From contig JAQUQI010000005.1 in NCBI GenBank assembly GCA_028716165.1, positions 24,996 through 88,995 on the forward strand: a stretch of DNA of 64,000 nucleotides. The letters run 5' to 3'. The notes beneath the pieces were generated by a model. It was not told the origin of the DNA, ran no database searches, and worked only from the letters and a program-made list of their open reading frames with translations. A program made the translations under genes and the position numbers. The stretch comes from Candidatus Omnitrophota bacterium (GTDB lineage Bacteria > Omnitrophota > Gorgyraeia > JABMRG01). Below are positions 12,001-61,689 of this stretch, in pieces. Position 1 is the stretch's first letter; every line of letters begins with the position of its first letter.

Positions 12001-15000
12001 AACCAGCTTCAAGGTATGGCATTAGAGACTTTTTACGAAGAAATTACAATAAGGAAATCCGATTTAGCTGATAGCAAAAAGGCTGTTGTGCTTAATGATG
12101 ATATAAAAATAGAGGAAACCGATGAATACATAAAAATCCGCCGAAAAATACGCGGCCTGAATGATATCTTTAAGGGGCCTAAGCTTGCGATACTTGAGGG
12201 CGGCTATGGATGGTTTGAGAGTATTAAAAAAGACCCGCGTTATAAAGAACAACATAAAGATGTTTTAACAATATTTATATCTCCTTTTACTGATGAGGAA
12301 ATAGGTATAAGGGCTCTTAACAATGCCTGGGTTGATTCAAAATTCAAATTGCCGGAAGAAAAGGCGGCTGCTTATAATGAAATTTTTGTTGTAATTAAGG
12401 AATTGCAAAACGAAATAAACCTTGTCAATGATGCCAATTTACAGCAAAGGGTGATAAGAGCCGTAGAGGATAACGCGCCTTCGCTTAAGGATTCCGCGGC
12501 TTGTCACAATGCTCAAGTAATAGATAGCAATGAATTCTTAAGCAGCTTAAAAATTGATATTAAGTCCCCCGGCGCGATAGATAAGGTCAAAGCCCTCGCG
12601 TATGAAGTAAACAGAAGGCTTTCTATGCGGGACGGCGAAATCAAATTCGCTTATTCTATCAAAGACGACCCCGCCGGTTATGACAGGTATCAGAGGGTGC
12701 TGGAAGGCATTATGCAGATAGTTAATAAAAATGAATATGACACCGTTTTGACGAACACATGGGGCTATACTGATAATGCGAGAAATCAAAACATAGAGAA
12801 ACTAACAATGGAATTTTCAAAAAGCTTTTTCTCGCATGTGGTAAAAGGCCTCCGTGATTCAGCCAAGGCCAGTTCAAAGGCTTTTGCAAAACGAGCATAT
12901 CCTGAGGGGTTATTAGATATGGCAAAAAAATATTTCAATTCAGATATAGAGAAAACCCTTAAGCAATTAAAGGATTGGGCAAAAGCTTATAATGACGCTG
13001 TCAAAAACAAAGAGATACTGGATACGGAAGAAATGACAGTGGAAAGACTGCTTAATATAAAAACAGCAGAAGGCCAGACGGATGCTGTAGAATATTTTCA
13101 TATAATTGATTCTGACGGTAATTATATCGGCATCAAGCCAAGGCCTCTTGCGCATCTTTCTAAAGCAAATGAAGATTGGCACAGGAGCGTATTTGTCATC
13201 GTAGTTGATGAACAAGGCAGGATGCTGGTGCAGACTCGTTCTGCCAATAAAGACCATGCCCCTAATGCCAGAGATATTTCTACGGGCGGGCATATGGGCT
13301 TATTGGATGATGGGCGAAATCTCGCTGATACGACAAAAGAAGTTGCCCTAAAAGAACTTGGGGAAGAGTTATTTAACATAGGCAATCTTAAGGATTATAG
13401 TATTTCTCCTGACAGGCTTTCTATGATAAGCGAGGTAGACGGGCTAAGGCTTTCCGTTCAATATACGACCCCTGTTAAAGGGTGGGATAATGAGCGTGTC
13501 ACTGTGTTTCTTTATTGCGCATCAAAAATGGATATAGAAAGAATTGACGCGGCAGCAAAAGCGATAAGTGACGAAAAGGCTTCATTTACCGCTTTTGAGG
13601 GTGAGGTAGCGGCTATGGAATGGGTTGCAATATCAGATGAATGGAATAAATTTAAAAACATGCCAGATTCTGACAGGCGCGTCAATTATGGGGCCGGTTT
13701 TATAAAGTTGTTTACGGATTACGATCGGGATGTATCGGATCCGGATACTGTTTTAGGAAAGATAGCGCGAATGTCTAATGATCTCAAGGCGCTCTATGCC
13801 AAGTTTTCAGAGTACGAAAAGAGGCTTGGCGAAAGATCTATAGGCCAATTTGTTGGGAAACCATTTGATCCTAACAGGCATATTTATCGTCCGAAGGTAG
13901 GCCCTGATGGCGAGATGCTGCCATTTTCCGGCTTCACAGTAGCTAAGAGGATAACGGAAGGGAAGCTGCGTGAGGCATTAATCGCATTTCAAGAAACAAT
14001 GAAAGAAGAGCTTAAAGCCGCGGGCATGGGCGATGTAGTGGCATTTCTTGATCCTGCCTCGCTTCATATGACTATAGCGGATATTGATCCCAGCCGGTCA
14101 TATCCAAAAGGAACAAGTTTTGAACAAGCCGGACAAAGGTTAGGCCAGATAGACAGCGCTTTTAAAGATATAGGCACGCCCGGCGCAGTACAGTCTACGG
14201 TCCGTGGCTTAGGCCTTGGGAATACGATCTCGGCGCTTGTAAGATTTACTCCAGAAGATCTGGACAAGGCCCTTTTGCTTGAAGGCGCTGTTCAGAAATC
14301 CGCGGATGTGTTCAATAGGCAGTTTACCGGGCATATAAGCTTAGGATATATAGCAAAAGAACCTGAAGATTATGACAAGTTTATCGCGATTCTCCAGAAA
14401 TACGCAGATTATAATTTTGGCGAACTGTTAATTGATACAATTGCTTTATTGCATTTTTCCGACATGAATCATTATACGCCTTTAAAGGAGAAGAATTTGG
14501 ATACAGGTGAGATTACAGACCGTTCCGAAGCAAAAGAGTTTTTGGAGTTTTTAAGAAAAGCCCCCGAAACAGCTCAGGATGAGGTTGTAGGTGGAATTTT
14601 CGGCATAATGACGGCAATTTTGGAAAACGACCCCCGGGCTGGAGATGTCAAGAAAGCCCCCGAAACAGCAGAAAGGCCCGCTGACGAGCTCGTAGATGAA
14701 CTGTACCGCAATAAAGAGCCTATGGGTTCTATACGAAATATTGCCGACTTGGAAAAACTGGCATTGGATAATATTAATGATAATATGGTTGTGGAGCCTA
14801 TAAAAAAGGTTCTTATTGATATTCTTAATGATGAGCAGACGGCCGGAGAGGATTATATTTTTGTTCGCGAAATGGCGGCTTATGCGTTGAGAATATTCGC
14901 GGATATCAATATTATACGTTCGCTGATGACCGTTGCTTCGCTTGAAAACGCGATGAACACTGAAACAGCTGGCAATGAGCTGCCGCCAGCCATTGCGGGC

Positions 15001-15519
15001 CTTGATCTTGCCGGCGTTGCCGATTATTCGGTTGAATATCAGCTTGCCTTATCATTACTGGACTATTCGCCTTCCGGACAGCTGTTTGTTAATAGAGACA
15101 AGCAGGCAGTGATAGTTTACTCGGATGCTCTCAAGCAAAGCAGGGCATTGCAGGATATCCTTAGGGCGTCTGTTCAGGACGAGAGAAGGTTCTATTTCGT
15201 TAATAAGACATCCCTAAGTTCCGGTGAATTTTTAGCAGGGGTCGGCCTGGATACTTTAAATTTTGATAATATTATTGAAGCCGAGGATATGTCCGCAGGG
15301 CAAATAGCCGAAACTGTAATGTCCGAATTGGCTAATCAGCACATAACCCAAGCCCGCGTTTTTGCCGCATTGGATCAGGATTTAATGTCGTGGAAAACAG
15401 CTTCTATTGAAACACTCCTCATGCTTCTAAAGGACAAGAGGTTTGAGATAATATCCGATTACAGCCAGCAGCATGCCGAATATATCAGGACGCATGCCCA
15501 GGCGTTAACAGCAGCATAA
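1..15519 (+). CDS. Giant multidomain membrane protein, 5'-partial (>5144 aa). Contains tandem ~68-aa repeats, Rhs/YD-like repeats, three TM clusters, a guanylate-kinase-like domain with degenerate P-loop, a Nudix/IDI-like domain, and a C-terminal module paralogous to the ORF at 16714.
   Basis: One uninterrupted frame from base 1 to the stop at 15517-15519. The ORF track begins at a TTG at 85, but codons 1-84 have no stop, so the true start is upstream. Hydrophobic helices lie at about nt 7040-7140, 7990-8420 and 10150-10960. GK-like motifs are APGTGKG ... LYHTRSPR..DGIAYHF ... ILEGGYGW ... IFISPFTDEEIG. The IDI/Nudix-like stretch is HRSVFVIVVDEQGRMLVQTRS...GGH...KELGEEL. Confidence 0.85.
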   Translation, partial: TYVFNFDAETGRVTTGELKRYADSGRPILIALEYTPGKEGKSPSFKARVFGSQQDMEDAQDLLTSGSQIVLVSKADSFVVHEVQKAGEGYVARLDGNGAPVVWIHAEYNKGNPDVERSGAVSASIQDMRLIADIQSVSKKLRLKGPDGNDITGLAQITDANNLESVLNKDLGEPVQVSTELPDHKYVIMAYNSGTKQVLPFYGKSTFDVYTQFYNSPEHEKEFELLNLLKIGNIIYTDDNSSWLGGFEPQRGGVRRAKITMFNDNKGNEYPVKIGHDAQTRDDLYAYGVLEIDIRDDSFNPTGSWVYYLNKQGLPIDRLPHEEACNLRNVSINFSGKNENAKLLINDIAYGQNAHDKFGAFLPFAADVYDVSGGAPRPVGIHIDDRGRNRIYFEFTSQATQSADGTWSVPALAFCDMYDDQNVYLGQYAFNSIVKWTEGEDGAKAYTYEIGNALSWGVEAQSGPYAGNKFVYILDSTRKKDDGSYIISNEMLGKLGTTERGSHILSGKDLDTLGIDKNSKAVSRILRAAQIYQAGFEAGDPSRVMLFDSSYPGREKEAVAMSQYPGGELEMVIRGPNSKEIARFTFGDSDSYDTNKFGLYRKIVEDFQTDQSEKIKQMALSEGIITIPVKLGNYYIGHRYNNETSLYEHGMFKTLADLAKAGYAIYDEITAAQIFRLDSDTPAKIEFFANDGSSLGRAITDQKLSLSVFDKGGEKIGENVYEFVFDRLTGNVVIGKFLYFIDTKKAEEMLGKMLEALREDPVALEAFNLLTGAGIKDSGKLSQAQLDVLYTLIFKNDLGEFHENAADTEKTLEGLRLASSMLAALRGNQGALEAFNALTNAGFANEGYLADSQLAVLYGMIYDGEGEKHKHAGDPKTTMEGIILAKKALDQLRANPSELAAFNLIAGVNIKLSGPLTAEELTALYTLVYDSDGDFYRDSAGYAYTPIESIKFAGPMLKALRLDLEALKAFNLFTGVNIQPTGKLSQSQINALYGLIYGANGDFQPNATDPIATIEGLKLAVAMLDSLRSNPEALKLFNLFTGINITLQGALNGKQIDALYGLIYTKDADGKTILKDNADDPASAIQDIITFYNNVVSYVIAISANPNAMALANSAFGLGLTPNMTAGNITQAQLKIFSNSDLGILYDEGGVLRDIDTVVMLFKRMGEIYANWDSQAQSALRIFSGVDIAPGLDSLNSDQIKAFNTLLFDRNGNLYLTDAEFDAQTVVANLKRVIYKVGDTYVTENGLAAYSLNSNSPGVKPLLLAQVTKTGKHDRMYIIDPSIPNTDNVYAEILEGDIDLDAGTINLKFVVNVGRDSAGNRISSVTNYDGREVQRGTLAGFIDSSGGYIPSDVYIDDLSDIAAVRMKITTSLFGQQWYEEYDFNGNIVRTIKPYPETGQAEVVKYNVKENGSFPDSRSYLYEYDNNLNDIKTDKPVMDLRESKIIGYTDMNDPIAFVHDSVTDSYWQEIIDPVGRVKAKVIGDYNAAAGIFSPIAIEIPSYDGYIGASAIGSSKMYEYSKANGYNTAAYAGSKVLIETGKIEIITIDGRVCVRSFYFNNKTNVSWQEIKDARGNIIAKLYQYPDSGSSGYRASFVEIMQYEPGIGSIEGIAQSGKLYLFTGREDLRDFSISQYADKPVLTESYLVDHSGKAITTVEALKMDSLVYQYENKVSKLVWQEERDNRGRLIAKYTGVSSRDDQGNLTGFSRKVVEKITPTGILGVMHISATSNSYLYETYQGEKGKHLSEYRPEFAYVSAQIINDSGNAVDSLAGIAQDNTVTYRYVNHKTHLVWEEVRDGFGRIIRRYDGETLGDKSSPLTEPFKRVLVTDQYYEGLIGDFGLSTSSEVYSLDESGKKVGNPIDQSELLSNKFEKLDFEQLSATDSFGALKSIFDEQGRIYYQGSRAYKRSDIRGEGLLEYREIKNNTGSIEERFEGYKDPSGKFVSNLKRYFFYPDSDIWRSFSIAQKTILTIFVDGKEIIFSVANRTSFDEQTGDISYSCKKGKGIINFPQITYTNLEQSLDLLFEDAKGFEYVTYAWQEIKNNRGWLVQTREGFGLDDKNFPMGVPRYITFLKGYSLDIPISLEAHIYKYDDNAGERLDGQVIRTKQTESDYRHGTKVGSLQGLHFTDNIAVYDVNDTRINRKSVNNSGYRMDGRLAWEIHAGKMFRDKVYLTYFNELECADYSARLVGVLSPIAGSKLNITNRLAEIKQEPYKTHYTIMIPSKPGSYIVWDKTPDQAKNVWFAVDRFMDGDEIDTEKVSSKGFTRAVENRNIFTAPSEDSALNLAEQDGKYFSEGEFLYEIKNKYTPVLWRSYHENSIREYIGVQFNKHIKNSWLYNAIVESNKRDTLSPIVITTAVSLAAITFLLPLALFLFTYVLSYVHFKKLGKKQIADTKSSGLPGEGGDIASGRAPSAQAPGHASAKVSPGAPSVPDQEIRVRVADINRHLYLNKAFTDYLISLYYKTDEELFALLDAYYPDTHSEKPAMLSERYKYSMVLNNNTVSPDSKQRAKYDFVDRVFTKPISYLMLAIMIDQAEKWDWMNKGELDKGDRITGGLADNFWPFTDRDMKRLFEYFKADGKDPILELGLYKYLGATTLQQWYMDANIKALKEKADKNTTEKQAKANVKKKKDHKLEKGKLIEEAIKPAKEWLAKRYEYEGLHQTVYPMKVNKIINLVWRVFALGGTAGLIAMAITSFSSFGVIGLVFTGLIWSFVLVETHKMLQYAQFHKNWLQGLRTMFKARADYKGPLSEAELKVKKNFFKAYFGWMGTYAAVIVGFSLLYSVGSIPWFGWLAAIPILVISLRESFRSWWYIFTESAATAISRNQRLDSLKRYEDIGKQELDRIRRNEYLKDVFKDVVIEATLSVESGFHLISKQEEQALIKVLNDPKAKKLPDLKSPHAKQEIIKWFNTILMFDEDEFKRIYDQTKLDELNPSIFKGTGKKRVLPTRDFLDAEDGETKDAKGVITEYTPAGIIKSGFYVFKEEFKESWEIFLRDDIFNGVAVDDAFLERLMDPKTTLKQTIEDIAQKLGRTQKDIEEYIISKWIVFRADGYLKTLLFAERAGEAAYRVLIKHKFKDENGRDPSEAEINDILKKHLMFIHVHEDIDPDIQNWGGKNPSEIINILCDTNRPQGTYTINGCSYADTGSEKSFNRTFTPQDSNKIILSTKEFKGHDYLKDEAKRWVVKTDKWSVTARFIEKFLKDIVKEDAMIVNLDRDHFFYPSEFFMLPFLAQRFTSEDNLGYLTTRLDMRTGYVAPTGAAHQVAEDTWNLRTLLAEALLGASSYYGPGLVRWSVMRSWGAYMSNIEDTAAAHEAIMDGMRGDHTTWITWGRPREMVGASILDFQNRFGGLVIDEFLSVHYQKLLKSDKAHWTEKLTIFQNFDFYFNKPLIPHFNLLIFLFSFFINFTPFSFFALPILFVSLGYLFSQAITSGGIRLFHAKQPFLKAWASYSKMFWGLVFTFVPLIPMHGEKALNAFKGTAGRFSSGIKDIFYPAVKFRELYNLYKPSIRWGVALLGILCLAPTHPWAIVTQIFFHIFPIAFIFGPFMKNAPANKKIAASVFGVSGALFALNAIFAFMPMPFVAAVALGIIIAAGLTGKEKYTKGITHGLLAIVYYLLRIDDIFFDRPGARGPDAKGVKTKVKDRKYSPLMTSLLISVSLPFYVLRLDLLGALIKKQDSKAELGAGLELGLDLSRKIFNPLNESSGKFAALMNDSLKALMSLAQSDQNLDAYLQNLLSKEDNISKNISIRVLKNLPVNAARYLNDMGSVEIVLNERFVLSLLNDYDSYPVVKYILAERLFHELGHDNKTGTAQEEVDEEAELIARDLELHSIISSDIQNEINKYFQDKKPSFPSGYYFVFLDKLSKLGDGQRSASIRDYIRQNGLAIGRLSDDEINALSVEELVQLIESVLDMSGKEIANKFLLYSAAPGTGKGEVMDAIFTEGKGKYAHLVDKLTLYHTRSPRVKKGISEKDGIAYHFRGEDELRQLEKEGKIITALVNNQLQGMALETFYEEITIRKSDLADSKKAVVLNDDIKIEETDEYIKIRRKIRGLNDIFKGPKLAILEGGYGWFESIKKDPRYKEQHKDVLTIFISPFTDEEIGIRALNNAWVDSKFKLPEEKAAAYNEIFVVIKELQNEINLVNDANLQQRVIRAVEDNAPSLKDSAACHNAQVIDSNEFLSSLKIDIKSPGAIDKVKALAYEVNRRLSMRDGEIKFAYSIKDDPAGYDRYQRVLEGIMQIVNKNEYDTVLTNTWGYTDNARNQNIEKLTMEFSKSFFSHVVKGLRDSAKASSKAFAKRAYPEGLLDMAKKYFNSDIEKTLKQLKDWAKAYNDAVKNKEILDTEEMTVERLLNIKTAEGQTDAVEYFHIIDSDGNYIGIKPRPLAHLSKANEDWHRSVFVIVVDEQGRMLVQTRSANKDHAPNARDISTGGHMGLLDDGRNLADTTKEVALKELGEELFNIGNLKDYSISPDRLSMISEVDGLRLSVQYTTPVKGWDNERVTVFLYCASKMDIERIDAAAKAISDEKASFTAFEGEVAAMEWVAISDEWNKFKNMPDSDRRVNYGAGFIKLFTDYDRDVSDPDTVLGKIARMSNDLKALYAKFSEYEKRLGERSIGQFVGKPFDPNRHIYRPKVGPDGEMLPFSGFTVAKRITEGKLREALIAFQETMKEELKAAGMGDVVAFLDPASLHMTIADIDPSRSYPKGTSFEQAGQRLGQIDSAFKDIGTPGAVQSTVRGLGLGNTISALVRFTPEDLDKALLLEGAVQKSADVFNRQFTGHISLGYIAKEPEDYDKFIAILQKYADYNFGELLIDTIALLHFSDMNHYTPLKEKNLDTGEITDRSEAKEFLEFLRKAPETAQDEVVGGIFGIMTAILENDPRAGDVKKAPETAERPADELVDELYRNKEPMGSIRNIADLEKLALDNINDNMVVEPIKKVLIDILNDEQTAGEDYIFVREMAAYALRIFADINIIRSLMTVASLENAMNTETAGNELPPAIAGLDLAGVADYSVEYQLALSLLDYSPSGQLFVNRDKQAVIVYSDALKQSRALQDILRASVQDERRFYFVNKTSLSSGEFLAGVGLDTLNFDNIIEAEDMSAGQIAETVMSELANQHITQARVFAALDQDLMSWKTASIETLLMLLKDKRFEIISDYSQQHAEYIRTHAQALTAA
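2233..3700 (+). repeat. In-frame tandem array inside the giant gene: 5 clear and 2 degenerate copies of a ~201-204 nt (~68 aa) unit, consensus ..ALEAFNLxTGxNI..G.Ls..Q...LY.LIY..DGDF......DP....EGL.LA..ML..LR.NP
   Basis: ALEAFN / ELAAFN / ALKAFN / ALKLFN recur at nt ~2287, 2491, 2692, 2893 and 3094 with a 201-204 nt period. Two further decayed copies sit near 3330 and 3540-3650. Confidence 0.7.
4380..6160 (+). repeat. Dispersed Rhs/YD-like repeats inside the giant gene, motif [SVA]W(Q/E)E..D..G(R/N)(L/I)I..Y, at least 5 copies
   Basis: SYWQEIIDPVGRVKAKV (~4390); SWQEIKDARGNIIAKLYQY (~4691); VWQEERDNRGRLIAKYTG (~5025); VWEEVRDGFGRIIRRYDGE (~5375); AWQEIKNNRGWLVQT (~6110). These resemble the YD-repeat core D..GRL....Y, flanked by Y.YD/Y.YEN motifs. 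Confidence 0.4.
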
Positions 15520-15566: not shown

Positions 15567-16694
15567 ATGAGAAGGAGCATAAAAATATTTGTTTTATACG
15601 CAGGCCTTGCCATTATATCCATGGCAAGCCCCGCTTATTCTTGGCAAAATTTTTTATGCGCCTTAAGGCCTTTATCGCTGGCGCAATCGCAAAGGATTGA
15701 ATCAGATATAAAGTCCGCCTTCTTGTCAATGCGTATTTCAGATATTGTGTTTATCGCGGATAAAGATGGGACTTTGTCAAAGCCTAATGAGCCTGTCCGC
15801 GGTTCCACGGTTAACCTTATAAGTGAAATTTTTAAAATGTACGGCCGTTCGCATATCGTTATCTGCACAGGGGGTATACTGGAAGACAGCGAGAATAATC
15901 TTATAAAGCCTTTGGAGGAAATGATAAAGTCTGGTGATTCCAGTTGGTTTGAGCGTTTAACATATTATTTTATGGCTGGACTGGGTAAAATATCTTGGAA
16001 TAAGCAAGGAATACGAACGATTGAGTATTTTGGAAAACCTTTTTCAGCAGATGACCAGATGTTTATCGTAAGAAATCTGGCTAAATCTCTGGCAGGCAAT
16101 ATAGAGGGCATGCGCCTGCCTGAAAGCATTGATAGGGCCGAAAGCTTTGACGCCTTTAGTAAAATATTTGATGAATTTGTAGCAGAAAATAAAAGCGTTC
16201 TCGGCCATATTGAGATTGCCAACGGCATGGGCCGGCAGTTTACCATAGAGTTTAAAAAATCGTCCGAGAAACAGGCATTGCCTGAATTGCAAAATTCTGA
16301 TTTTACCCGAAAGGTCGCGGAAACTTTTAAAGAACTTCTTGCACAGCGCCCTAACCTCCAGAATCTGCATGTAAGATACGGTGATACATATGTGGATTGC
16401 AGTCCGGTGGATAAAAAAGATGCCATAGAATATTTTTTAAGCGAGAAAAATTTTGAAAGCCCTCTTATTGTGGCGGTTGGAGACGGTAGTAATGATTATG
16501 GGTTTTTATTTAAAGCCGCAGACGATAGGACGAAGCTATCTTTTTTTGTAGGCAAAGGCCATGAAGGCTTGCCCGATCATGTGACTCTATGGCAGACGCC
16601 CGGCCCGGCTGGAACGGAAGAGATACTGTCGTCAATAGTCAAGTCAGTCAAAAGCTCATTTGACATGGAATATAATATAAGAATTTGCGCCTAA
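15567..16694 (+). CDS. Secreted HAD-superfamily (subfamily IIB, Cof/sugar-phosphatase-like) hydrolase
   Basis: N-terminal signal peptide followed by FLCALRPLSL. HAD motif I is DKDGTL (nt ~15760) and motif IV is GDGSNDYGF near the C-terminus. Confidence 0.6.
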   Translation: MRRSIKIFVLYAGLAIISMASPAYSWQNFLCALRPLSLAQSQRIESDIKSAFLSMRISDIVFIADKDGTLSKPNEPVRGSTVNLISEIFKMYGRSHIVICTGGILEDSENNLIKPLEEMIKSGDSSWFERLTYYFMAGLGKISWNKQGIRTIEYFGKPFSADDQMFIVRNLAKSLAGNIEGMRLPESIDRAESFDAFSKIFDEFVAENKSVLGHIEIANGMGRQFTIEFKKSSEKQALPELQNSDFTRKVAETFKELLAQRPNLQNLHVRYGDTYVDCSPVDKKDAIEYFLSEKNFESPLIVAVGDGSNDYGFLFKAADDRTKLSFFVGKGHEGLPDHVTLWQTPGPAGTEEILSSIVKSVKSSFDMEYNIRICA

Positions 16695-16713: not shown

Positions 16714-19044
16714 ATGCACGGATTAAGGGTATTTAAAAAATCTTTGATATTTGTGTTAATATGCTGTTTTTTTATCAATCAGCAGCTTTTGGCCTGCGAA
16801 TTTTTTTGCCTAAGGCCCGCGTCTGTTAATAACTCCAACACCCCTCTTGTTTTACAGCAACCGGATGATTTAAACAAATTATCTGTAAAAGAACTTGAGG
16901 CCAAACTCCAAAATATTAAGTTGATTAAGCTGAAGGAGCTGAATAAATTGACACCGTCCAGCAAGGAGGAGCTTAAAGATCTCGCTGGCAGGGTAGCTGA
17001 AATGGGCGATTACTTGAGTGCGGTTATACAAAAAGAGTTATTGGGAAATGGTAAAAAATATGGCAATATTATGGAAAAATTTATGCTATTTTCAGCAGGT
17101 CCCGGAACTGGTAAGGATTATGTTTTTTCTAAAACATTTGGAAGAGAAAAAGAAAAAAATGCAAATAAAAAATGGAAGTATCCACACTATACAGATGGGA
17201 GCTTCTTTAAGTTAGTTGAAAAATTGATATTGTATCATTCAAGGCCGTTAAGAACAAAAGAAAATGAAAAAGACGGCTGGGAGTATAATTTTGACACAAG
17301 ACTTGATCATAATCGTATAAACACATTAGAAAATAAAGGAAAAATTAAAACCGCAACAGTAAACAGGCAGTTACAGGGTATGGCAATAAACGGATTTGAT
17401 GAGAAAGGCGTGGTAATAGAGAATGTTATCAATCCTGCAGATTTTAAAGCAGGTGATAAGGTAACAAAAACTATTGAATTTTTGGATGGAGAAAATCTCA
17501 AACAAGATGTTTTGGTTAAAAGGCAAGGCTTCGAGCAAAACCTGAAAATAACCACAGGTATAAAAGATGATGAAATAGGAGATGGCAAGCCCGGCGTCTT
17601 TATTGCGGGTGATATTATTGAAGAGGTTTCTCATAAAGATGTAACAGTTAAAAGGCCTGTAAAAGGCATAATGGATATTATTGATGGGCCCAAACTTGGG
17701 GTGGTTGAGGTAGGATATGGCTGGTTTAGGATGCTTACAGGTCCTCAATCTCCGACGAAGGATGTGTTCAAAATTTTTATAGCACCGTTTGACGAAAAAG
17801 AGATGCGATACATGACTAATGCAAGGAAATGGATTGAGCGCAGATTTACCAGCTATAATGAAAGAGCTTATGCCCATTTGTATATTTCATATAAGATGCA
17901 AGAAGCTAAGAAAGAATTATCAAACTTTAAATTCAAAGAAATAAGAGAATTAAAAAAAGACATAAAAGAACGCCTTAAAAAATTAAATAAAGATGAGGAT
18001 CTTATTGAAAAAGAGTTGGCTGATATTGCAGGCAAGGTTATGGAGTCTGGTATTAAAAAATTTGGATCAGACAAACAGACATATGCGAATCGTTTATTGG
18101 AATACGCAAAGCTTATAGAGAAAGAAGATTTTATAGTGCATCTGAATGAAAGATTGGAAAGCGATTTTGGTGATCCAAATGGAATAACGGACGTTAATCA
18201 AATAAGAGAAGCGAGATTGCTTGCTTACGAGATTAACAGAAGGACCCTTGCAAGGGATAGAGCTGTAGGGTTATCAAATGATGACAAACAGCCTGTTGAG
18301 TATGATAGATATAATAGATTGCTTGAAGGCATAATCCAGATTATGCATCGTAACGAATATGCCCAAAAAGGCGGTTTTGTTGTAATTAATAGGTGGGTAT
18401 TTGATCAAAGCAAGCAACAGGAATATGATGATGTTTTAAAAATACAATTTGCCGGAGCGTTTTTCTCAAATTTGATCGGAAAAATACAAGAAAAAATAAA
18501 ATCTCCTTCAGCAGGCATTGTCCCGGAGCGCGCGCCGGATTATGATGAGCAGTACATTTTAGCCGACGGGCTTCTTCGCTATTTCCCGGAGGGCATAATA
18601 AATGTCCCCGCGGAAAATCAAGCCGTGATAGTTTATTCAGATTCGCTCGCGGAAAGCGCGGCATTGCAGGATATAATCAGAAAGTCGTCAGCAGATGGCA
18701 GGAAATTTTATCTTGTCAATAAACAGGATTCCGTTTCCGCCGAAGATTTTTTAAGAAGCCTTAATATTGACAGGGATATATTTGAAAGCAATGTTTTTTT
18801 GCAAAACTCGCTTTCAGCCGATCAACTGGCGCTTAATATAGCGGCCGTGCTTAATAAAAACGGTATCCGCCAGGGCAGGGTGTTTGCCAGCGCGCAAGAC
18901 GATCTCATTGCCTGGAGCAGACAGGGCCTTATTGAAGCCCTTGTAATGCTACTAAAGGACAAGAAGTTTGAGATAATATCGGATTACAGCCAGCAGCATA
19001 CCGAATATATCAGGACGCATGTCGAGGCGCTGAAAGCGGCATAA
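16714..19044 (+). CDS. Secreted/lipoprotein 776-aa paralog of the giant protein's C-terminal region: GK-like domain with degenerate P-loop plus conserved C-terminal module
   Basis: RBS AAAGGAGG 6 nt upstream of the start. Signal peptide with a possible lipobox LLAC, then EFFCLRPASV. GPGTGKD...LYHSRPLR..DGWEYNF...VEVGYGW...IFIAPFDEKEM aligns with the giant protein's GK-like segment. The last ~150 aa align with the giant protein's C-terminus. Confidence 0.7.
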   Translation: MHGLRVFKKSLIFVLICCFFINQQLLACEFFCLRPASVNNSNTPLVLQQPDDLNKLSVKELEAKLQNIKLIKLKELNKLTPSSKEELKDLAGRVAEMGDYLSAVIQKELLGNGKKYGNIMEKFMLFSAGPGTGKDYVFSKTFGREKEKNANKKWKYPHYTDGSFFKLVEKLILYHSRPLRTKENEKDGWEYNFDTRLDHNRINTLENKGKIKTATVNRQLQGMAINGFDEKGVVIENVINPADFKAGDKVTKTIEFLDGENLKQDVLVKRQGFEQNLKITTGIKDDEIGDGKPGVFIAGDIIEEVSHKDVTVKRPVKGIMDIIDGPKLGVVEVGYGWFRMLTGPQSPTKDVFKIFIAPFDEKEMRYMTNARKWIERRFTSYNERAYAHLYISYKMQEAKKELSNFKFKEIRELKKDIKERLKKLNKDEDLIEKELADIAGKVMESGIKKFGSDKQTYANRLLEYAKLIEKEDFIVHLNERLESDFGDPNGITDVNQIREARLLAYEINRRTLARDRAVGLSNDDKQPVEYDRYNRLLEGIIQIMHRNEYAQKGGFVVINRWVFDQSKQQEYDDVLKIQFAGAFFSNLIGKIQEKIKSPSAGIVPERAPDYDEQYILADGLLRYFPEGIINVPAENQAVIVYSDSLAESAALQDIIRKSSADGRKFYLVNKQDSVSAEDFLRSLNIDRDIFESNVFLQNSLSADQLALNIAAVLNKNGIRQGRVFASAQDDLIAWSRQGLIEALVMLLKDKKFEIISDYSQQHTEYIRTHVEALKAA

Positions 19045-19217: not shown

Positions 19218-22200
19218 ATGGGTGTGAGAAAAGTTTCGCTAAAAATATCCGCCGTTTTTTTAATGGCAATAACGCTGGCCATATGGGCCAGGCCCGCCTT
19301 TTCTCTGTCCTGCCTTAGGCCGTCATCCCTGGCCGCGTCTAATGATACGGGTATAGTCCTGGATCTGCGGCCTGCGAATGGAGCGAATTTTAACAGTCAA
19401 AAAGCGCTCGCTGATTTTTTACATAAACGCGGGCTTATGCCGCAAGGCGTAAAAAGAAAGACCGCGCGCCTGGCAATCAGGGAAATGGCAAAGGCCCTTG
19501 AGACATACAGATTTGCCCAAGGTTTTAAATATCCTCCGTCAGATGAAGAGATCCTGAACTCGCTTGAGGATACCAACCTGTTCGATCCTTATAGAATCAG
19601 CCATAAATTACCGGTAACAATGGTTTTCAGGAAAGGCGCTTACAACGGAGATTACAAGAATAATATATCAAGAATTATTTTTACCCTAAGCCACGATTTT
19701 TGCGCGTTTGCTTCTATATGCGGGGTTGAAACGGAAGATAATGATATTATTTCTCTTGCCAGCCTGCATTATTGCGAGTTTGGCGACATGCTGTATGATA
19801 TGAGCGATGGAGTGCTTACTTCATTTCTCAAGTCTTGCGTTAGCCAGGCTGTATTTGAAGATACCACCAATAGCTTATGGGGTGTCGGTTTTAACGGGGC
19901 CGCCTGTTGTATTATAAGAAACCCATTGTCTCATAGGGAGAAAAAGGAGATTATCAAGCAATTCGCGGCATCTTTTTCAAACATTGGGATTTTAGGAAAA
20001 ACATTAATACTTAAGCCCGGTAAAAATACGGACGAAGCAGACATGGCTGTTATACAGGCCCGCGCCAACAGCGTTTATGGTTTTGCCAATAAGTCTTCTG
20101 CGGGAAAAGGCAAAGTGTATTTTCCTGTTGCCACATCAAGGGCTTTTGATAAAAACAGTTTCCCCCACACATTATGGAAAATAAGGGCGGCCGGTATAGT
20201 AGAGGCCTTAAACGCGGTTTTGCGCTCTAAAGGCATAAAACCTGAAAATGCCACTGTGATATTATGCGGGAAAACGGTTATAGCGCGTGGGGTTTTTGAT
20301 ATATTATTGTCGCAGAAGACAAAGGTAGTGGGGATATATGACGGTGACCATTGTCTGTATAACAAAAAAGGCATTGTGTCCCAGTATGGCAACAAAAAGG
20401 ATGACAATGTGATATTGGCAGACCTTTTAAGCATGGAGGCCACTGCCCTGGTTTCAACAGACATTTTTTCTCTTATCAGTTCAAAAAATATGCCCAGGCT
20501 TTGCGTGGATGTTATTATTGACGGCATATATCCGGCAATAAATCCTGAAACGTCAGATGCTCAAGCATTACCTGGCAAGATCACATATATACCCGCGTGC
20601 TTAAGCTGTGGCAGCAGCGCCTATGCCAGCGCCAGCGAGTTTTTTAACAGCAATGCCTCCGGTATGAACATAAAAGACCCGAGGATGCACCTTGAAAGAA
20701 GCATATTCAATATTGTCAATTCACTTGTTTTCTTAACAGACCGGGGTATCGTTCAAGGTTCTGTATACAATATATTAACAAAAAAAGCCGAAGAAATACG
20801 GAGCTTAAGGAACAGGTTCATAGAAGTTCCTACGGAAGAAGTCATAGAAGAGGCTGAATTTGAAATGCTTTACGGCTTGCCGGAAAGAATAGCCTTTTTG
20901 CGCGCTGCCACAAATATTGCCCTGACAAAAGTATTGTTTTCCGGTATCAGCTCCAATGCTCTTATGGATATTATTATGTCCGCTCGCTCCGATATGCTTG
21001 AAAAGAGAACGGCTGTTTATATATTAGGTAAAAAACAGGACCTTTCGTCAGTTGCTGAATTAATGCGGATAATATCGGATGAGGATGAGGACATAGACTT
21101 GAGGATAAACGCTATAGAGGCTGTCGGAAACATGAGGGCCGGAAGCGCGATAGAGCTCTTGCTTAAAATATGCAAACAAAAGAGTAAAGGTACGGATTTG
21201 TCCGGTTGGGCATCCTGGGCCCTTGAAAAGATGGGAGTCGCATTAAACGGGCAGAAAAGCCCGGTTAAAGAAGGAATATCATTCAGCCGCGCGCTGGAAG
21301 AATTGCCGAAAAAGGCGGCGGACGCTTGGTTTAATAATATACAAAAAGAGGGCAATAAGCCTGTTATGATCGGTTTTTCGGGGTATTCGGCAAGCGGTAA
21401 ATCGTACTTCGCGTCTTCTTTTGTCAAAAAATTGAAACTGATTATTGCGTCCCAACGGCGCAGATTAGATAAAGCTCCGGATAAAGCTGTGCATGAGATG
21501 CCCGCTATATACCGGCTTGATATGGATGAATACCTTATTCCAAAAAATGAGCGTTTGGCGCGCGCGAAAAGTTTAGGTTATGAGTTGTCAATTTTTATTA
21601 AATACGAAATAAAAAGATACTATGAAGACATGAAGGCCTTTGCCGCGGGCAAGCCTATATATGTCCCGCATTTTAATCAGGTAACGCGCCAGCGCCAGCG
21701 TTTGGCTCAAAGCCAGATTGACCTGGCAAGGATTGCTTTGGCGCGGGGCGCCGAAAGCCATGAACGCTATATAGACGGCCGAAAACATACTATTGTTTAT
21801 AGCCCTGCGATCAGCAGTGAAATGGGTATAATGGCTTATATAGACCTTGAGTCAGGGGATATCCTTACGCGTTTAGACCCGGAGAACAATATCCTTATAG
21901 TTGAGGGCATATTGGCCCTTACGAGCGAATCTGTCAACAGCTTGTTTTATGAAAGCATTTTTATAAAAGCGCCATGGACATTAAGATACTTGCGGGACAT
22001 TGAGCGTTATATCGCAACGGGTAAATACGCTTCTTTGACAGTGCAGCAGGTAAAAGAGAAGTTTGAGAGAAAGCGCGCTGCGGAAGAAACGCGTTTTATA
22101 TCCGCCCAGGAATCTATAAGTTCGCGTGTTGTGGATACCGCGGACAGCCCAACTGGCGCTTATGTTGAAGCCTTTACCGGAGCTTTAGACCTTTACAGGC

Positions 22201-23510
22201 AATGGCGCTTGGAGATATCCGCGGAAAAGGCAGGGCTATCCGAACAAAAAGAAAAAGTCAAGGGCCTCTTCATGGATATTGTCCGCCGGCATATTATTGA
22301 TAAAAATGTTTTAGAGAAACTCTGGACAAGGTTCTGCCAGAATACCCTTTTGCTGGAAAGAAGCGCTCTTTTTGACCTTGTTTCGCGCGTGATTGAAGAG
22401 CAGAACAGAAAATTATGGCCGTCATTATCAAAAACCGCAAAAAAGACTGTGATAAGTGGTATTCTGGAAAGCCGCGGCCTTGATTGCCAGGATTTTGACA
22501 TATTATGGTTTTCAGTATCTGTCCCGGATGAAATCAGGAAATACACCAGTACCCTGCCTGCCGGCGCGCCGGAGAATGGACAGATATGCTATTTTGGCCC
22601 GGATTCTATAAAGGGCCGGGACATAAAACTTATTATGGCTGATTTTGACCGCACCCTTTCTTCAGACCCATTTGCCATCGGGGATGATATCATCAGAGAG
22701 ATTGAAAAATTTCTTGCCTCCGGCGGCATATTTGTTGTCAACACAGGAAGGACGACAGACAGGATGCGCACGGTATTTGACAAAAGGATAGCGCCTGAAT
22801 TAAGAAAAAACATGATCTTCATGGGAGAATTTTCATCAATTATAGCCGGATACGATGAGAACGGCACTTTTTATACTGACTACCAATCCTCATTAAATGA
22901 TGATTTTCTCCTTAGCAAGGCCTTTACAGATAAGGTCATTGAAGACCTGCGTCTTAGGCTCGGTGTTAAAGCGGCATTGGAAGATGATTATAATCCCGTT
23001 GAACATGACGTGAAAATAATAAAGAACGGTAAACAGGCGACCATTACGGTATCATATGAAGATTGCCCGCGGATAAAATGCAAAACAAAGGACATGCGTT
23101 TTTTGCTTGAGAATGTTTTAAAGTCTTTTGGAAGGAGCGATTTCCATTTGTATGAAACATCCAGGTGCATTGATATATCCTTTAGGTCAAAGGCTTTTGG
23201 GCTTGATTGGGCGCTTGACAGATTCGGCCTGGATCCCGGGCAAATTGTAATCATAGGAGATAGCGCGGGATTATTTAAAAACGACAGGCCTATGTTAACG
23301 CATTTACCCCAGGCTTTAAATGTTTATGTAGGGATTGAAGATATCAATTCCCTGCCCAGCGGTATATTATATGGCAAAATGCCTTCAGAGGCAGGGGTTG
23401 TAGAAATACTGCGGGCAATTACAGGCGCCGGAAACGAAGTTAAAGGCCCCGGTCGCGTTACAATATTTGATAAGCGCCAGTTCGCGGCCGGCATAATGGC
23501 CGCTGCCTGA
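19218..23510 (+). CDS. Secreted 1430-aa multidomain protein: degenerate Glu/Leu/Phe/Val-dehydrogenase-like region, HEAT (PBS-lyase-like) repeats, PRK/uridine-kinase-like P-loop domain, C-terminal HAD-IIB phosphatase domain
   Basis: Signal peptide then LSCLRPSSLAAS. The GDH-like stretch (~19670-20420) has the GGGKGG lysine motif replaced by GAACCI and the Rossmann GFGNVG replaced by GKTVIARG. HEAT is LRINAIEAVGNMRAGSAIELL. The P-loop is GFSGYSASGKSYF (nt ~21370-21410). HAD motifs are DFDRTL (nt ~22640) and GDSAGLFKND. Confidence 0.65.
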   Translation: MGVRKVSLKISAVFLMAITLAIWARPAFSLSCLRPSSLAASNDTGIVLDLRPANGANFNSQKALADFLHKRGLMPQGVKRKTARLAIREMAKALETYRFAQGFKYPPSDEEILNSLEDTNLFDPYRISHKLPVTMVFRKGAYNGDYKNNISRIIFTLSHDFCAFASICGVETEDNDIISLASLHYCEFGDMLYDMSDGVLTSFLKSCVSQAVFEDTTNSLWGVGFNGAACCIIRNPLSHREKKEIIKQFAASFSNIGILGKTLILKPGKNTDEADMAVIQARANSVYGFANKSSAGKGKVYFPVATSRAFDKNSFPHTLWKIRAAGIVEALNAVLRSKGIKPENATVILCGKTVIARGVFDILLSQKTKVVGIYDGDHCLYNKKGIVSQYGNKKDDNVILADLLSMEATALVSTDIFSLISSKNMPRLCVDVIIDGIYPAINPETSDAQALPGKITYIPACLSCGSSAYASASEFFNSNASGMNIKDPRMHLERSIFNIVNSLVFLTDRGIVQGSVYNILTKKAEEIRSLRNRFIEVPTEEVIEEAEFEMLYGLPERIAFLRAATNIALTKVLFSGISSNALMDIIMSARSDMLEKRTAVYILGKKQDLSSVAELMRIISDEDEDIDLRINAIEAVGNMRAGSAIELLLKICKQKSKGTDLSGWASWALEKMGVALNGQKSPVKEGISFSRALEELPKKAADAWFNNIQKEGNKPVMIGFSGYSASGKSYFASSFVKKLKLIIASQRRRLDKAPDKAVHEMPAIYRLDMDEYLIPKNERLARAKSLGYELSIFIKYEIKRYYEDMKAFAAGKPIYVPHFNQVTRQRQRLAQSQIDLARIALARGAESHERYIDGRKHTIVYSPAISSEMGIMAYIDLESGDILTRLDPENNILIVEGILALTSESVNSLFYESIFIKAPWTLRYLRDIERYIATGKYASLTVQQVKEKFERKRAAEETRFISAQESISSRVVDTADSPTGAYVEAFTGALDLYRQWRLEISAEKAGLSEQKEKVKGLFMDIVRRHIIDKNVLEKLWTRFCQNTLLLERSALFDLVSRVIEEQNRKLWPSLSKTAKKTVISGILESRGLDCQDFDILWFSVSVPDEIRKYTSTLPAGAPENGQICYFGPDSIKGRDIKLIMADFDRTLSSDPFAIGDDIIREIEKFLASGGIFVVNTGRTTDRMRTVFDKRIAPELRKNMIFMGEFSSIIAGYDENGTFYTDYQSSLNDDFLLSKAFTDKVIEDLRLRLGVKAALEDDYNPVEHDVKIIKNGKQATITVSYEDCPRIKCKTKDMRFLLENVLKSFGRSDFHLYETSRCIDISFRSKAFGLDWALDRFGLDPGQIVIIGDSAGLFKNDRPMLTHLPQALNVYVGIEDINSLPSGILYGKMPSEAGVVEILRAITGAGNEVKGPGRVTIFDKRQFAAGIMAAA

Positions 23511-23788
23511 TACTGCGCAGTTATAATCCAGGCGATATTTTGATAAGTAAGGCACCGTCTTAAAACGCGCGCTTGCCGCTCTTTATTATTTTTTCGGTTT
23601 TTTTCGTGTATCCATGGTGAAAATCTGACCGGGAAGGAGGGAAAAAGTAAAAGCTGATTTTTCAGGATTTTAGCTTGACGCATATTGCTGATTTTGATAA
23701 ACTAATAACACTTATCCTTTAAAAGGATCAAAATAACCGCTGTTTCTGCGTTTAATGCATGAGAACTTATATAAAGGAGGAACGGATA

Positions 23789-31624: not shown

Positions 31625-31640
31625 TAAAAAAGGAGGAGAC

Positions 31641-41429: not shown

Positions 41430-41463
41430 TTAGAAAAGTTTTTATTTGTATCCGGGAGATACT

Positions 41464-60357: not shown

Positions 60358-61344
60358 ATGCGCCAAGCTGGTAATATCCCACCCAATAAACATGCCGCTG
60401 TCTATTTACTAACCGGAGCCGATGAGTTTAGAAAAAGGCTATGCCTGGATAAGCTTAAGAGAAAAATTATGGGCGAAGCTGCCGACGCCTTTAACTTTAA
60501 TCTTTATTATGCCAGGGATATATCCGCGGCTATTATCATAGATTTTTTGCAGACTTTCTCAATTACAGGTTCGCGCAGAATGGCCGTTCTTGTTGAACCG
60601 GAGGTTTTTTCTGAAGAGGACAGAGGCCATCTTATGGCGTATATAAAAAGTTGCCGGCCTGAAAACGTATTTCTTGTTATGCTGGGCGGAAAGTCTTCCG
60701 TGAAACTGCAGAATTTCTCCAGGTCACTGCCTGACTGCGTTGATAAGATTGATACGACTATTGATGATGAAGACGACATATCTGACTGGGTTATTCAAGA
60801 ATTCGGCAAAAATGGCAAGAAAATAAATCGCGCGACAGCAGCTCTTATCTCCGGTTCTGCCAGGCAAGATATGGGAAGGGCCTTGTCTTGCATTGAACAG
60901 GTAAGCGCTTATACAGGAGCCAGGCAGGATATTACGGAAGATGACGTGGCGCTTTTTTTAGATGCTCCTTGCGAGAGCTCAACATTTGCCTTGTTGGATG
61001 CTACAAACGCTAAGATGCCCGATAAGGCACTGCTTGTTTTAAACGATTTGCTGAAGACAAACCTGTCTCCAACGCAGGCAATAGGATTAATGGCGTGGCA
61101 TATCATCAGGCTTTTGAAGGTCAAAAAAATGATTTCTGCCGGGGCGTCATTGCAGGATATGATGGCAGGGCTTAAAACAGGTTCTTACAGATTAAACAAA
61201 CTTATAGCGCAGGCAAAGGGTTTTTCACTGGTAAAGCTTAAAAAGAACCTGCAAAGCCTGTCCAATACGGATATCTGGATAAAATCAAGCAATATAAACG
61301 ATAGCTATCTGTTAGAGGCGCTTGTCGTAAAACTTGCCGGTTAA
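60358..61344 (+). CDS. holA: DNA polymerase III delta subunit
   Basis: 328 aa. N-terminal YLLTGADEF...L pattern. 2-nt spacing after lptE. Confidence 0.6.
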   Translation: MRQAGNIPPNKHAAVYLLTGADEFRKRLCLDKLKRKIMGEAADAFNFNLYYARDISAAIIIDFLQTFSITGSRRMAVLVEPEVFSEEDRGHLMAYIKSCRPENVFLVMLGGKSSVKLQNFSRSLPDCVDKIDTTIDDEDDISDWVIQEFGKNGKKINRATAALISGSARQDMGRALSCIEQVSAYTGARQDITEDDVALFLDAPCESSTFALLDATNAKMPDKALLVLNDLLKTNLSPTQAIGLMAWHIIRLLKVKKMISAGASLQDMMAGLKTGSYRLNKLIAQAKGFSLVKLKKNLQSLSNTDIWIKSSNINDSYLLEALVVKLAG

Positions 61345-61640
61345 ACGGGATGATTCTTATCTTTGGCAGGCAAGCCTTTTTTAAGTTTTGATATTTTTAA
61401 TGACAGGCGTGATTTTTTACGGTCGGCATTCTGGCGCTTTATTAGATTTTTCTTGGCTGCCTTATCCAGTTTAGACATTAGGACGCTAAAAAACTTTGAC
61501 GCCTCTTCGGTCTTGCCCCCGGCTATAAAGGCGTTTAATTTTTTGGTAAGGGTTTTAAGTTCGGACAGCATCGCGGTATTGTGAGGCCTTCTTTTTTTAT
61601 CTTGTCTTATTGATTTTTTTGCCGATTTTAGATTAGCCAT
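61341..61640 (-). CDS. rpsT: 30S ribosomal protein S20
   Basis: MANLKSAKKSIRQDKKRRPHN... is classic S20. A GGAGG Shine-Dalgarno lies 5 nt upstream of the ATG (minus strand). The ORF track's 228-aa call is an N-terminal over-extension of this 99-aa protein. Confidence 0.85.
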   Translation of the reverse strand: MANLKSAKKSIRQDKKRRPHNTAMLSELKTLTKKLNAFIAGGKTEEASKFFSVLMSKLDKAAKKNLIKRQNADRKKSRLSLKISKLKKGLPAKDKNHPV

Positions 61641-61689
61641 ATTATCCTCCGATAATGTGAAATGATAATATAACATAACAGAGCAAGCC

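Follow-up and report, generated by a model that had tools for sequence, protein, structure and literature searches.

A pseudo-dehydrogenase, kinase and phosphatase cassette protein encoded beside a giant open reading frame in Candidatus Omnitrophota

We describe here a gene located at nucleotides 19218..23510 (+ strand) of a 64,000-nucleotide stretch of Candidatus Omnitrophota DNA (GenBank assembly GCA_028716165.1, contig JAQUQI010000005.1, positions 24,996 to 88,995 of the forward strand), referred to below as the window. The open reading frame (ORF) starts at an ATG codon and encodes 1430 amino acids followed by a stop. The product carries a signal-peptide-like N-terminus (residues 1-29, 19218..19304, +), followed by a degenerate Glu/Leu/Phe/Val-dehydrogenase-like domain (residues 95-565, 19500..20912, +; called GDH-like below, after glutamate dehydrogenase), HEAT repeats (residues 566-690, 20913..21287, +), a UCK/PRK-family P-loop kinase (residues 700-975, 21315..22142, +), a conserved helical linker (residues 976-1130, 22143..22607, +) and a Cof-type HAD-IIB phosphatase domain (residues 1131-1405, 22608..23432, +). 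The original prediction, which was made from the letters of the window, had proposed this order of GDH-like, HEAT, P-loop kinase and HAD-IIB modules, and matches to Pfam, NCBIfam and PDB profiles confirm it; weak direct scans also agree with its family assignments (HEAT_2, PRK, Hydrolase_3, ELFV_dehydrog, HAD-IIB). As a whole the window has the make-up typical of giant-gene loci in the Omnitrophota, and the 1430-aa protein is a stand-alone copy of a cassette that recurs in the giant proteins of the Omnitrophota.

The sole close relative of the full protein in ~5.8 billion protein clusters is P0001, a hypothetical protein from a Ca. Omnitrophota metagenome-assembled genome that is also 1430 residues long, is 66% identical and is encoded at a locus (L001, L002) syntenic with the window on both sides of the gene. 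We treat it as the orthologue. Scanning metagenomes with the full-length alignment returned only the species of P0001 (L002; 1428/1430 residues identical), and the same scan of GTDB species representatives returned no relative of the full-length protein. A further database entry, P0002, is a 792-aa call that is 100% identical to the C-terminal half (residues 690-1430). Word-index protein searching is insensitive here: residues 33-565 gave no match although P0001 is 69% identical in that region, and residues 690-1430 gave P0002 but missed P0001, so that negatives from this method do not amount to absence. The whole-gene ratio of non-synonymous to synonymous substitution rates (dN/dS), computed against the L002 orthologue, is ~0.19, with values of 0.135 for the HEAT repeats, 0.14 for the kinase, 0.15 for the GDH-like domain and 0.21 for the HAD domain; synonymous divergence is near saturation and these values are approximate. 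All domains are under purifying selection, and the equal length of the orthologue together with the low overall dN/dS rules out a gene-fusion artefact or a pseudogene.

The GDH-like domain is barely visible to direct searching. The direct Pfam ELFV_dehydrog match (residues 325-387) has an E-value of 0.031 and scores 14.4 bits against a cutoff of 23.4, although a PDB profile search matches the domain to the Bacillus subtilis glutamate dehydrogenase 3k92 at 9.5e-5. Intermediates provide the connection. Residues 33-565 were searched with HMMER against all of 1.84 billion representatives, which returned 20 proteins; those that are named or labelled are either from Candidatus Omnitrophota or annotated as Glu/Leu dehydrogenases. 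Two of these, P0003 and P0007, are matched by residues 33-565 at 1e-55 and 6e-18 and themselves contain ELFV_dehydrog at 2.6e-26 and 3.2e-32, respectively, and another, P0010, aligns with the Thermotoga maritima enzyme 2tmg at 7e-20 with every hallmark block in place. The homology of residues 33-565 to the dehydrogenases can thus be regarded as secure by transitivity.

It had been predicted that this domain lacks the catalytic lysine of GGGKGG and the Rossmann GxGxxG. Both losses are borne out, and the family hidden Markov model (HMM) alignment reveals that replacement extends to 6/6 hallmark motifs: KGGIR has become SLASLHY (residues 179-185), GGGKGG has become FNGAACC (residues 225-231), PDxG has become KPGKNT (residues 266-271), GxGxxG has become LCGKTVIAR (residues 349-357), EGAN has become DGIYPA (residues 435-440) and NAGGV has become SCGSSAY (residues 463-469). 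Neither the catalytic lysine, the substrate lysine of KGGxR and the aspartate of the PDV block, nor the dinucleotide-binding GxGxxG, EGAN and NAGGV of the NAD(P) domain, are kept. Amongst the relatives in the same alignment, GGK is retained in 11 and PDM in ten. Ten members (P0007, P0008, P0010-P0013, P0015, P0016, P0018 and P0020) form an intact group in which KGG(I/C)R, DGGKT, GPDM, QGFGDVG, EGANN and ANGGG are kept; most have HEAT repeats behind the domain but in none is there a kinase. In the degenerate group, the catalytic lysine is lost in all members and the other motifs are lost by degrees, with P0004 and L006 retaining GLGGVRY, KPDSGT and DGTGNVS and the 1430-aa protein and P0001 standing at the extreme of the series. 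In all degenerate members with enough downstream sequence, a kinase follows. The genome contexts of five relatives with intact motifs (P0008, P0011, P0012, P0015, P0018) consist of ordinary unrelated genes and carry no information on the short terminal motifs described below.

Loss of the motifs has not been accompanied by general drift. Conservation within the 1430-aa protein is highest in the first GDH-like subdomain, with 74% identity to the orthologue, and new motifs such as NSLWG(V/I)xFNGA are found in P0003 as well. On this evidence the GDH-like domain appears to be dead as an enzyme but constrained, rather than decaying.

The HEAT repeats that follow match Pfam HEAT_2 (residues 582-666) at 3.6e-6 and the alphaRep HEAT proteins at 6e-8 in a PDB profile search, and are found at the same place in P0003, P0004, P0007, P0010, L003, L004 and L006. 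Behind them lies the kinase, which scores 23.6 bits against the Pfam PRK model (PF00485; residues 717-966), above the gathering score of 22, and matches the NCBIfam uridine kinase model at 2e-11. A kinase alignment of five lineages (A4), in which sequences other than the orthologue are 29-45% identical to the 1430-aa protein, matches UCK1, UCK2 and bacterial uridine kinases (Udk) at ~1e-10, with weaker matches to phosphoribulokinases (1e-7 to 1e-5). The whole UCK chain is covered, and D770 falls on the UCK aspartate of the DxxY block. By BLAST, the kinase lineages are just 24-39% identical, yet a set of residues that includes the catalytic ones is invariant: G722, G727 and K728 of the Walker A sequence GYSASGKS (residues 722-729, 21381-21404, +), D770 and Y772, P817, F819, T823, R824 and R826, E896-G-I, R923, R926 and R930, G935-K-Y, R951-K and E956. 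The prediction of an intact-looking kinase of the PRK/uridine-kinase type therefore holds, with Walker A, catalytic aspartate and LID arginines all present in five lineages, and the domain is probably active as a member of the UCK/PRK family.

Its substrate is probably neither uridine nor cytidine. Scores against the uridine kinase equivalogs NF004018 and TIGR00235 are 43.7 bits against a cutoff of 180 and 29.1 against 220. The base-reading residues Tyr112 and His117 of UCK2 correspond to Phe819 and Arg824, and no counterpart of UCK2 Asp84, a ribose-binding residue, aligns in the kinase domain. The kinase fold also contains a 62-residue insertion (residues 827-888, 21696..21881, +) that falls between the UCK-aligned blocks; it is found in three lineages, including P0001 and P0003, but not in P0004 or P0005. 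The helical linker, aligned in P0003, directly follows the kinase in L004 (3e-12) and L006 (6e-10) by tblastn, and residues 976-1130 gave no family assignment.

The last domain has all four HAD motifs, namely D1142-F-D-R-T1146 (with D1144), T1176, K1325 and G1347-D1348...N1355-D1356, and all are invariant in P0001. The nucleophile, acid/base aspartate, threonine and lysine are also kept in P0005. Motifs II and III are ~148 residues apart, a spacing that would suit a C2 cap. Although matches in the PDB are weak (1e-3), every one is a Cof-type HAD-IIB sugar-phosphate phosphatase (3r4c, 2b30, PfHAD1, YidA, BT4131). The expectation of an intact-looking HAD-IIB domain thus stands as regards motifs I-IV and has to be qualified for motif IV, which carries four extra residues. 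At the same position in P0005, behind the same kinase and linker, lies a canonical HAD domain (DFDDT, LTGR, GDGYND). The C-terminal tail of the domain, PxEAGxxEIL (P.(E/P)AG..EIL), is common only to the product of the neighbouring ORF 15567.

At least five other lineages, most of them labelled Omnitrophota, contain the block of GDH-like domain, HEAT repeats, kinase and linker. In P0003 (1847 aa) a signal peptide is followed by GDH-like domain, HEAT repeats, PRK-type kinase and linker, with an S-adenosylmethionine (SAM) methyltransferase in place of HAD; P0004 is a partial sequence carrying the block; and P0005, a giant of 5865 aa, contains the whole cassette (GDH-like 1988-2471, kinase 2611-2967, HAD 2975-3190). 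Four contigs from GTDB (L003-L006) each carry one cassette ORF, open end to end, of 1413 to 3719 aa. L005 and L006 are labelled Omnitrophota, and L003 and L004 'uncultured Planctomycetales'. The ORFs of these contigs also encode PGI (2e-233), PFK, HPr, His_Phos_1 and a glycogen-phosphorylase-like stretch. In giant ORFs, related cassettes are flanked by many transmembrane helices. The cassette can be written as [degenerate GDH-like]-[HEAT]-[UCK/PRK kinase]-[helical linker]-[variable enzyme domain], the variable domain here being HAD-IIB.

In another Omnitrophota lineage, long proteins show a feature of a different sort: between their modules, P0004 (residues 19, 234, 351 and 423) and P0006 (residues 35, 107, 520 and 1104) contain repeated '(P)LDNGG' motifs that resemble double-glycine processing sites; there are none in the giant ORF of the window. 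C39 peptidase domains have been reported in giant proteins (West-Roberts et al. 2023, 10.1101/2023.11.21.568195).

The N-terminus of the 1430-aa protein (MGVRKVSLK / ISAVFLMAITLAIWA / RPAFS) has a basic segment (R4, K5 and K9; +3), a hydrophobic core of 15 residues (residues 10-24) and then A27-F-S29, for which P0001 has V-S-A. The n-region, core and small -3/-1 residues of a Sec (signal peptidase I) signal peptide are all present, as read by eye and from Kyte-Doolittle hydropathy only. The segment is just 24% identical to that of the orthologue, yet its n/h/c character is retained, and the same features are seen in P0003, P0011, P0012 and P0018. It is the sole strongly hydrophobic stretch of the protein besides one Rossmann-type beta strand, with no further transmembrane-like segment found by Kyte-Doolittle analysis. 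The charge is +3 before the core and +1 to +2 after it, a bias that favours an N-in orientation and hence predicted export of the protein body. Two other types of signal were considered and set aside. Cys32 might be read as a lipobox cysteine, but it is preceded by S-L-S here and by R-D in P0001 rather than by L-[AS]-[GA]; and the N-terminus has no RR motif of the Tat type.

Upstream of the gene lies the 3' part of a giant ORF (1..15519, +), which reads open from the first base of the window and ends ..TAA. It is truncated at its 5' end by the edge of the window, so that its length of >5172 aa is a lower bound. Hydrophobic segments cluster around residues 2320-2775 and 3360-3650, and its last 1477 residues contain weak matches to NUDIX (2e-8), guanylate kinase (7e-4) and 2H phosphodiesterase (9e-4). 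Two predicted exported proteins are encoded between the giant ORF and the 1430-aa gene. One (15567..16694, +) is a 375-aa HAD-IIB protein ending ..ICA, with DKDGT, CTGG, K and GDGSND as its canonical motifs and a signal-type N-terminus, which bears out the earlier suggestion of a neighbouring secreted HAD phosphatase. It aligns in register with the HAD domain of the 1430-aa protein by hhalign (E 3e-4, probability 38%), and the two are probably distant paralogues. The other (16714..19044, +), of 776 aa and ending ..KAA, is paralogous to residues 3875-4287 of the giant ORF (taken as 85-15519; 29% identity) and to its last 174 residues (50%), and has a C-terminal end in common with it (EIISDYSQQH.EYIRTH..AL.AA). 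Guanylate-kinase-like domains had also been predicted at this locus. The giant ORF lends this weak support, but a domain of this type in ORF 16714 is unsupported by Pfam, NCBIfam or PDB searches, in which no family was recognised.

Downstream of the 1430-aa gene lie genes for a small lipoprotein, two GH2-like TIM barrels and a solute-binding protein with two permeases, and further downstream those for a PilZ protein, a GH94 phosphorylase, PKD-repeat proteins and a 233-aa protein (47572-48273) in which a region resembling GspC of type II secretion (8e-5) is joined to a PDZ domain (5e-6). The last of these is flanked by a PKD-repeat protein of 1306 aa and by a protein of 1343 aa without recognised family. 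The large ORFs of the window are all on the + strand except 61341..62027, and G+C content is 40-47%. Scanning the window for promoters and terminators gave scores no better than those of shuffles, and no tRNA or tmRNA gene was found within its 64 kb. The possibility that the 1430-aa protein acts in anti-phage defence was also considered and dropped, PADLOC giving nothing but a HEAT match.

Several smaller features of the neighbourhood deserve mention. A C-terminal domain ending ..YLD(E/D)I(K/R)(Y/F)E is found in three small paralogues of the window (23759-24433, 31596-32243 and 41446-42753). ORF 23759 has a lipobox (LSGCAKQ) and a weak 'choice-of-anchor J' match (0.005). Over its N-terminal part it shows 74% identity to the gene after P0003 (12087-12239) in L007, the locus of P0003, against a mere 33% between the adjacent cassette proteins. 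ORFs 29059-29727 and 29525-31624 overlap by ~200 nt, and the latter, which ends at 31624, also overlaps the next ORF, which begins at 31596; translation of the 699-aa GH2-like ORF probably begins at some point downstream of its first ATG. In L007, nucleotides 2936-4804 encode a glycogen-synthase-like GT5/GT1 protein (622 aa) with a signal peptide, an SLRP motif and an AAA end, and hence a further nucleotide-sugar-dependent enzyme of cytoplasmic type with an export signal in a giant-gene locus.

Two short motifs link the 1430-aa protein to its neighbours. Shortly after the predicted signal peptide is the sequence CLRPSS (19311..19328, +), in which LRP occupies residues 33-35. A count of this tripeptide reveals only four occurrences in the 29 ORFs of the window (~20,000 residues), and 3/4 are at residue 33 of the consecutive exported ORFs 15567, 16714 and 19218 (nucleotides 15663-15671, 16810-16818 and 19314-19322), the products of which are otherwise dissimilar. 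The motif stands 3-13 residues past the predicted cleavage site. The L002 orthologues (ORFs 6340, 7488 and 9986) carry VLRP, TLRP and CLRP; in a third lineage, L007, ORFs 2936 (GT5), 5363 (a 330-aa protein) and 6403 (P0003) carry SLRP, YLRAP and ALRP; and TLRP is present in P0018. The cysteine of the motif is replaced by Tyr or Thr in orthologues of two neighbour proteins (L002), and since the residue before LRP is not conserved, the motif is not a lipobox.

The second motif lies at the other end of the chain. The 1430-aa protein terminates in Ala-Ala-Ala (23499..23507, +), and P0001 keeps this IMAAA end within a stretch of 25 C-terminal residues that has just 36% identity overall. The giant ORF ends -TAA (15511-15516), ORF 16714 ends -KAA (19036-19041) and ORF 15567 ends -ICA (16689-16691), whilst in L007 5/5 consecutive proteins end Ala-Ala (gene ends 2914, 4804, 5243, 6355 and 11946), including a PilZ protein without a signal peptide. 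Such ends are kept in three lineages; by chance, a protein would end in AA with a probability of 0.007. The genes use different codons and stop codons here, which rules out a conserved nucleotide element and places the constraint at the protein level. In character the ends are similar to the classical apolar C-terminal tails that serve in degradation or PDZ binding. Rather tentatively, and with some doubt, we suggest that LRP and Ala-Ala could form a two-part address marking a defined set of clients for a dedicated step. The 1430-aa protein would then be one client subunit in an extracytoplasmic multi-enzyme assembly of large size. Binding of the tails by the PDZ domain of the GspC-like protein, docking on the giant protein and Tsp/ClpXP-type proteolytic control of unassembled copies are candidate roles and only ideas. 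Both tags seem to be new. If functional, they would provide a simple sequence rule with which to find all components of giant-protein apparatuses in metagenomes.

How might these features fit together? The original prediction spoke of an extracytoplasmic or prey-directed activity, or of repurposed modules, and as a reading of sequence this is still the best frame at hand. Within it, the explanation that we prefer, in which our confidence is evenly divided, is that the protein is an exported satellite of the giant-protein locus. The N-terminus would be a cleaved Sec signal and the protein would act outside the cytoplasmic membrane with the giant protein and its two tagged neighbours. The GDH-like domain would no longer oxidise amino acids but would serve as a scaffold, that is, a constrained structural, oligomerisation or ligand-binding module, and the HEAT repeats would offer a protein-protein interface. 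Kinase and phosphatase would both be active on small phospho-metabolites of sugar-phosphate or nucleoside type, though not on uridine or cytidine specifically, and they might work on what prey or substrate releases, ahead of its import by the sugar ATP-binding cassette (ABC) importer encoded just downstream. The ATP for an exported kinase would most plausibly come from prey cytoplasm or lysate, which is the weakest link in the scheme.

A number of observations weigh against this explanation. The P-loop kinase looks catalytically intact, yet no ATP is expected in the periplasm or outside the cell, and the base- and ribose-reading residues of UCK2 are not conserved in it. The phosphatase scores below cutoff against both TIGR01484 (4e-8 over model positions 1-214/221; 33.5 bits against 41.8) and Pfam Hydrolase_3 (PF08282; 0.011, 15.9 bits against 20.9), and its motif IV, GDSAGLFKND, departs from GDGxND by a four-residue insertion that gives a 7-residue spacer. 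AlphaFold2 models from a two-sequence alignment have a mean predicted local distance difference test (pLDDT) score of 33 for residues 33-700 and 36 for residues 690-1430, and the fold assignments rest on sequence profiles. The full-length protein is known in two species-level versions only amongst the clusters searched. Relatives with intact NAD(P)-binding GDH domains (P0011, P0012 and P0018) also have signal peptides, and in L006 the cassette is contiguous with a PFK domain, with no hydrophobic segment between; both are chemistries of the cytoplasmic type, and they speak for a location in the cytoplasm or for transfer of the protein to another cell.

Because an exported kinase would need ATP, we grant a real though minor share of probability to a rival in which the protein belongs to a membrane-tethered cytoplasmic metabolon, held by an uncleaved anchor or in reversed topology and working on the cell's own sugar-phosphate or nucleotide pools with cytoplasmic ATP, beside the ABC importer. 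The intact kinase fits this arrangement, as does the finding of the cassette contiguous with PFK and on one polypeptide with PGI (2e-233) and HPr, and the L007 PilZ protein that lacks a signal peptide has the same Ala-Ala end. In published analyses, 46% of long Omnitrophota proteins fall into a class with transmembrane helices only and a cytoplasmic body (10.64898/2026.06.07.730766), and West-Roberts et al. (10.1101/2023.11.21.568195) suspect that glycolytic domains are mislocalised. Set against it, the charge distribution, short h-region and small -3/-1 residues are those of a cleaved Sec signal rather than an N-out anchor, Sec-type features are kept in eight related or neighbouring proteins, and the authors of 10.64898/2026.06.07.730766 reverse their own cytoplasmic reading for a multi-enzyme protein of 147 kAA (thousand amino acids) with both signal peptide and transmembrane helices.

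The signal peptide and the dependence on ATP would be reconciled if the protein were an effector injected into prey, delivered with or by the giant protein, that uses prey ATP and drains or rewires nucleotide or sugar-phosphate pools. Loci of this type are linked to predation in the literature, the NUDIX- and guanylate-kinase-like stretches of the giant ORF strike a nucleotide theme and a GspC-like secretion component is nearby; but neither PADLOC nor Pfam recognised a translocation domain, toxin family or immunity gene, and related cassettes placed between many transmembrane helices in giant ORFs fit an anchored protein, and we think this explanation unlikely. More doubtful again is the idea that all of the enzyme-like domains are non-catalytic, so that the protein would capture nucleotides or sugar phosphates as an adhesin or receptor, or would scaffold the giant protein. 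The GDH-like domain, non-catalytic yet strongly constrained, the atypical motif IV of the HAD domain and the HEAT repeats, which point to protein binding, could all be cited in its favour. Against this, K728, D770, E896 and the LID arginines are invariant across lineages 24-39% identical by BLAST, the HAD nucleophile, acid/base aspartate, threonine and lysine are kept in the orthologue and P0005, and the decayed GDH motifs in the same chain show that decay is visible where it is present.

Giant proteins of the Omnitrophota are amongst the largest known, and their cytoplasm-type domains may act within the cell, in its surroundings or in prey. A stand-alone cassette copy of 1430 aa is, unlike the giants, small enough for expression, assay and topology mapping and so offers a tractable proxy. 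The graded decay of the GDH-like domain likewise provides a natural enzyme-to-scaffold series, intact without the kinase and degenerate whenever the kinase follows.

Proteins of this general kind have been described before. West-Roberts et al. (2023; 10.1101/2023.11.21.568195) reported 'Archaeovorins', multi-enzyme mosaics encoded by giant genes of the Omnitrophota, with pilZ and binding-protein-dependent carbohydrate import genes downstream and genes of type II secretion-like kind in the vicinity. An extracellular position was predicted for glycolytic, HAD and HEAT domains, a localisation that the authors themselves doubt. A 2026 preprint (10.64898/2026.06.07.730766) describes 'multi-enzyme metabolic clusters' with HEAT scaffolding, finds a signal peptide or transmembrane helices in 94% of long Omnitrophota proteins and keeps both extracellular and cytoplasmic-face readings alive. 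In the passages of the two preprints that were covered (12 of 14 and 12 of 22 places) there is no GDH-like domain, mentions of dehydrogenases concerning other enzymes; searches of both gave nothing relevant to tags of the LRP or Ala-Ala type, and 'PRK' and 'uridine kinase' do not occur in the second. The earlier remark that the fusion is 'not a known pathway' therefore stands for the chemistry, but the kind of object had already been described. What does seem to be new is this particular cassette, together with the series of pseudo-GDH domains in graded decay and the tags common to the locus proteins.

The 1430-aa protein shares with the proteins of giant loci its Omnitrophota relatives, a gene placed downstream of a giant ORF and upstream of PilZ and a sugar importer, cytoplasm-type enzymes chained together with HEAT scaffolding, a signal peptide and the same puzzle of localisation. 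It falls short of giant length (taken as 10,000 aa or more), being 1430 aa long and the product of a separate gene, a satellite of the giant ORF; the cassette is also embedded in the 5865-aa P0005 and in contig-spanning ORFs of 2307 to 3719 aa, open at both ends.

Combination of a P-loop kinase with a phosphatase in one chain is familiar from T4 polynucleotide kinase-phosphatase (Pnkp) and PFK-2/FBPase-2. The phosphatase of T4 Pnkp is a DxDxT HAD enzyme of the capless polynucleotide type, whereas here the kinase belongs to the UCK/PRK clade and the HAD domain is of the IIB, small-molecule type, for which a cap is predicted, making this an analogy. PFK-2/FBPase-2 chains are matched by the kinase profile at chance level only in the PDB (E ~0.8-1). 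Taken domain by domain, the known systems are closer. Both subdomains of the Glu/Leu/Phe/Val dehydrogenases (PF02812 and PF00208; e.g. 2tmg) have homologues here, with motif order and spacing kept, but none of the six hallmark motifs survives, HEAT repeats are fused to the domain and its N-terminal extension and C-terminal helices are common to the Omnitrophota relatives only. With the UCK/PRK family (UCK1 9sgf, UCK2 1udw, Udk 3asy, PRK 6kev), the kinase domain aligns in Walker A, the (L/S)xDxxY aspartate, a PxYD-like block, an hhhhEGIL strand and an arginine-rich LID, and it departs from UCK in its 62-residue insertion, in the Tyr112 to Phe819 and His117 to Arg824 replacements and in a score far under the uridine kinase equivalog cutoff. 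The phosphatase domain resembles Cof-type HAD-IIB enzymes (YidA 1rkq, BT4131 1ymq, PfHAD1 4qjb, 3r4c) in motif order and in the spacing of motifs II and III, and is set apart from them by a motif IV four residues longer, by sub-cutoff scores and by its fusion behind a kinase.

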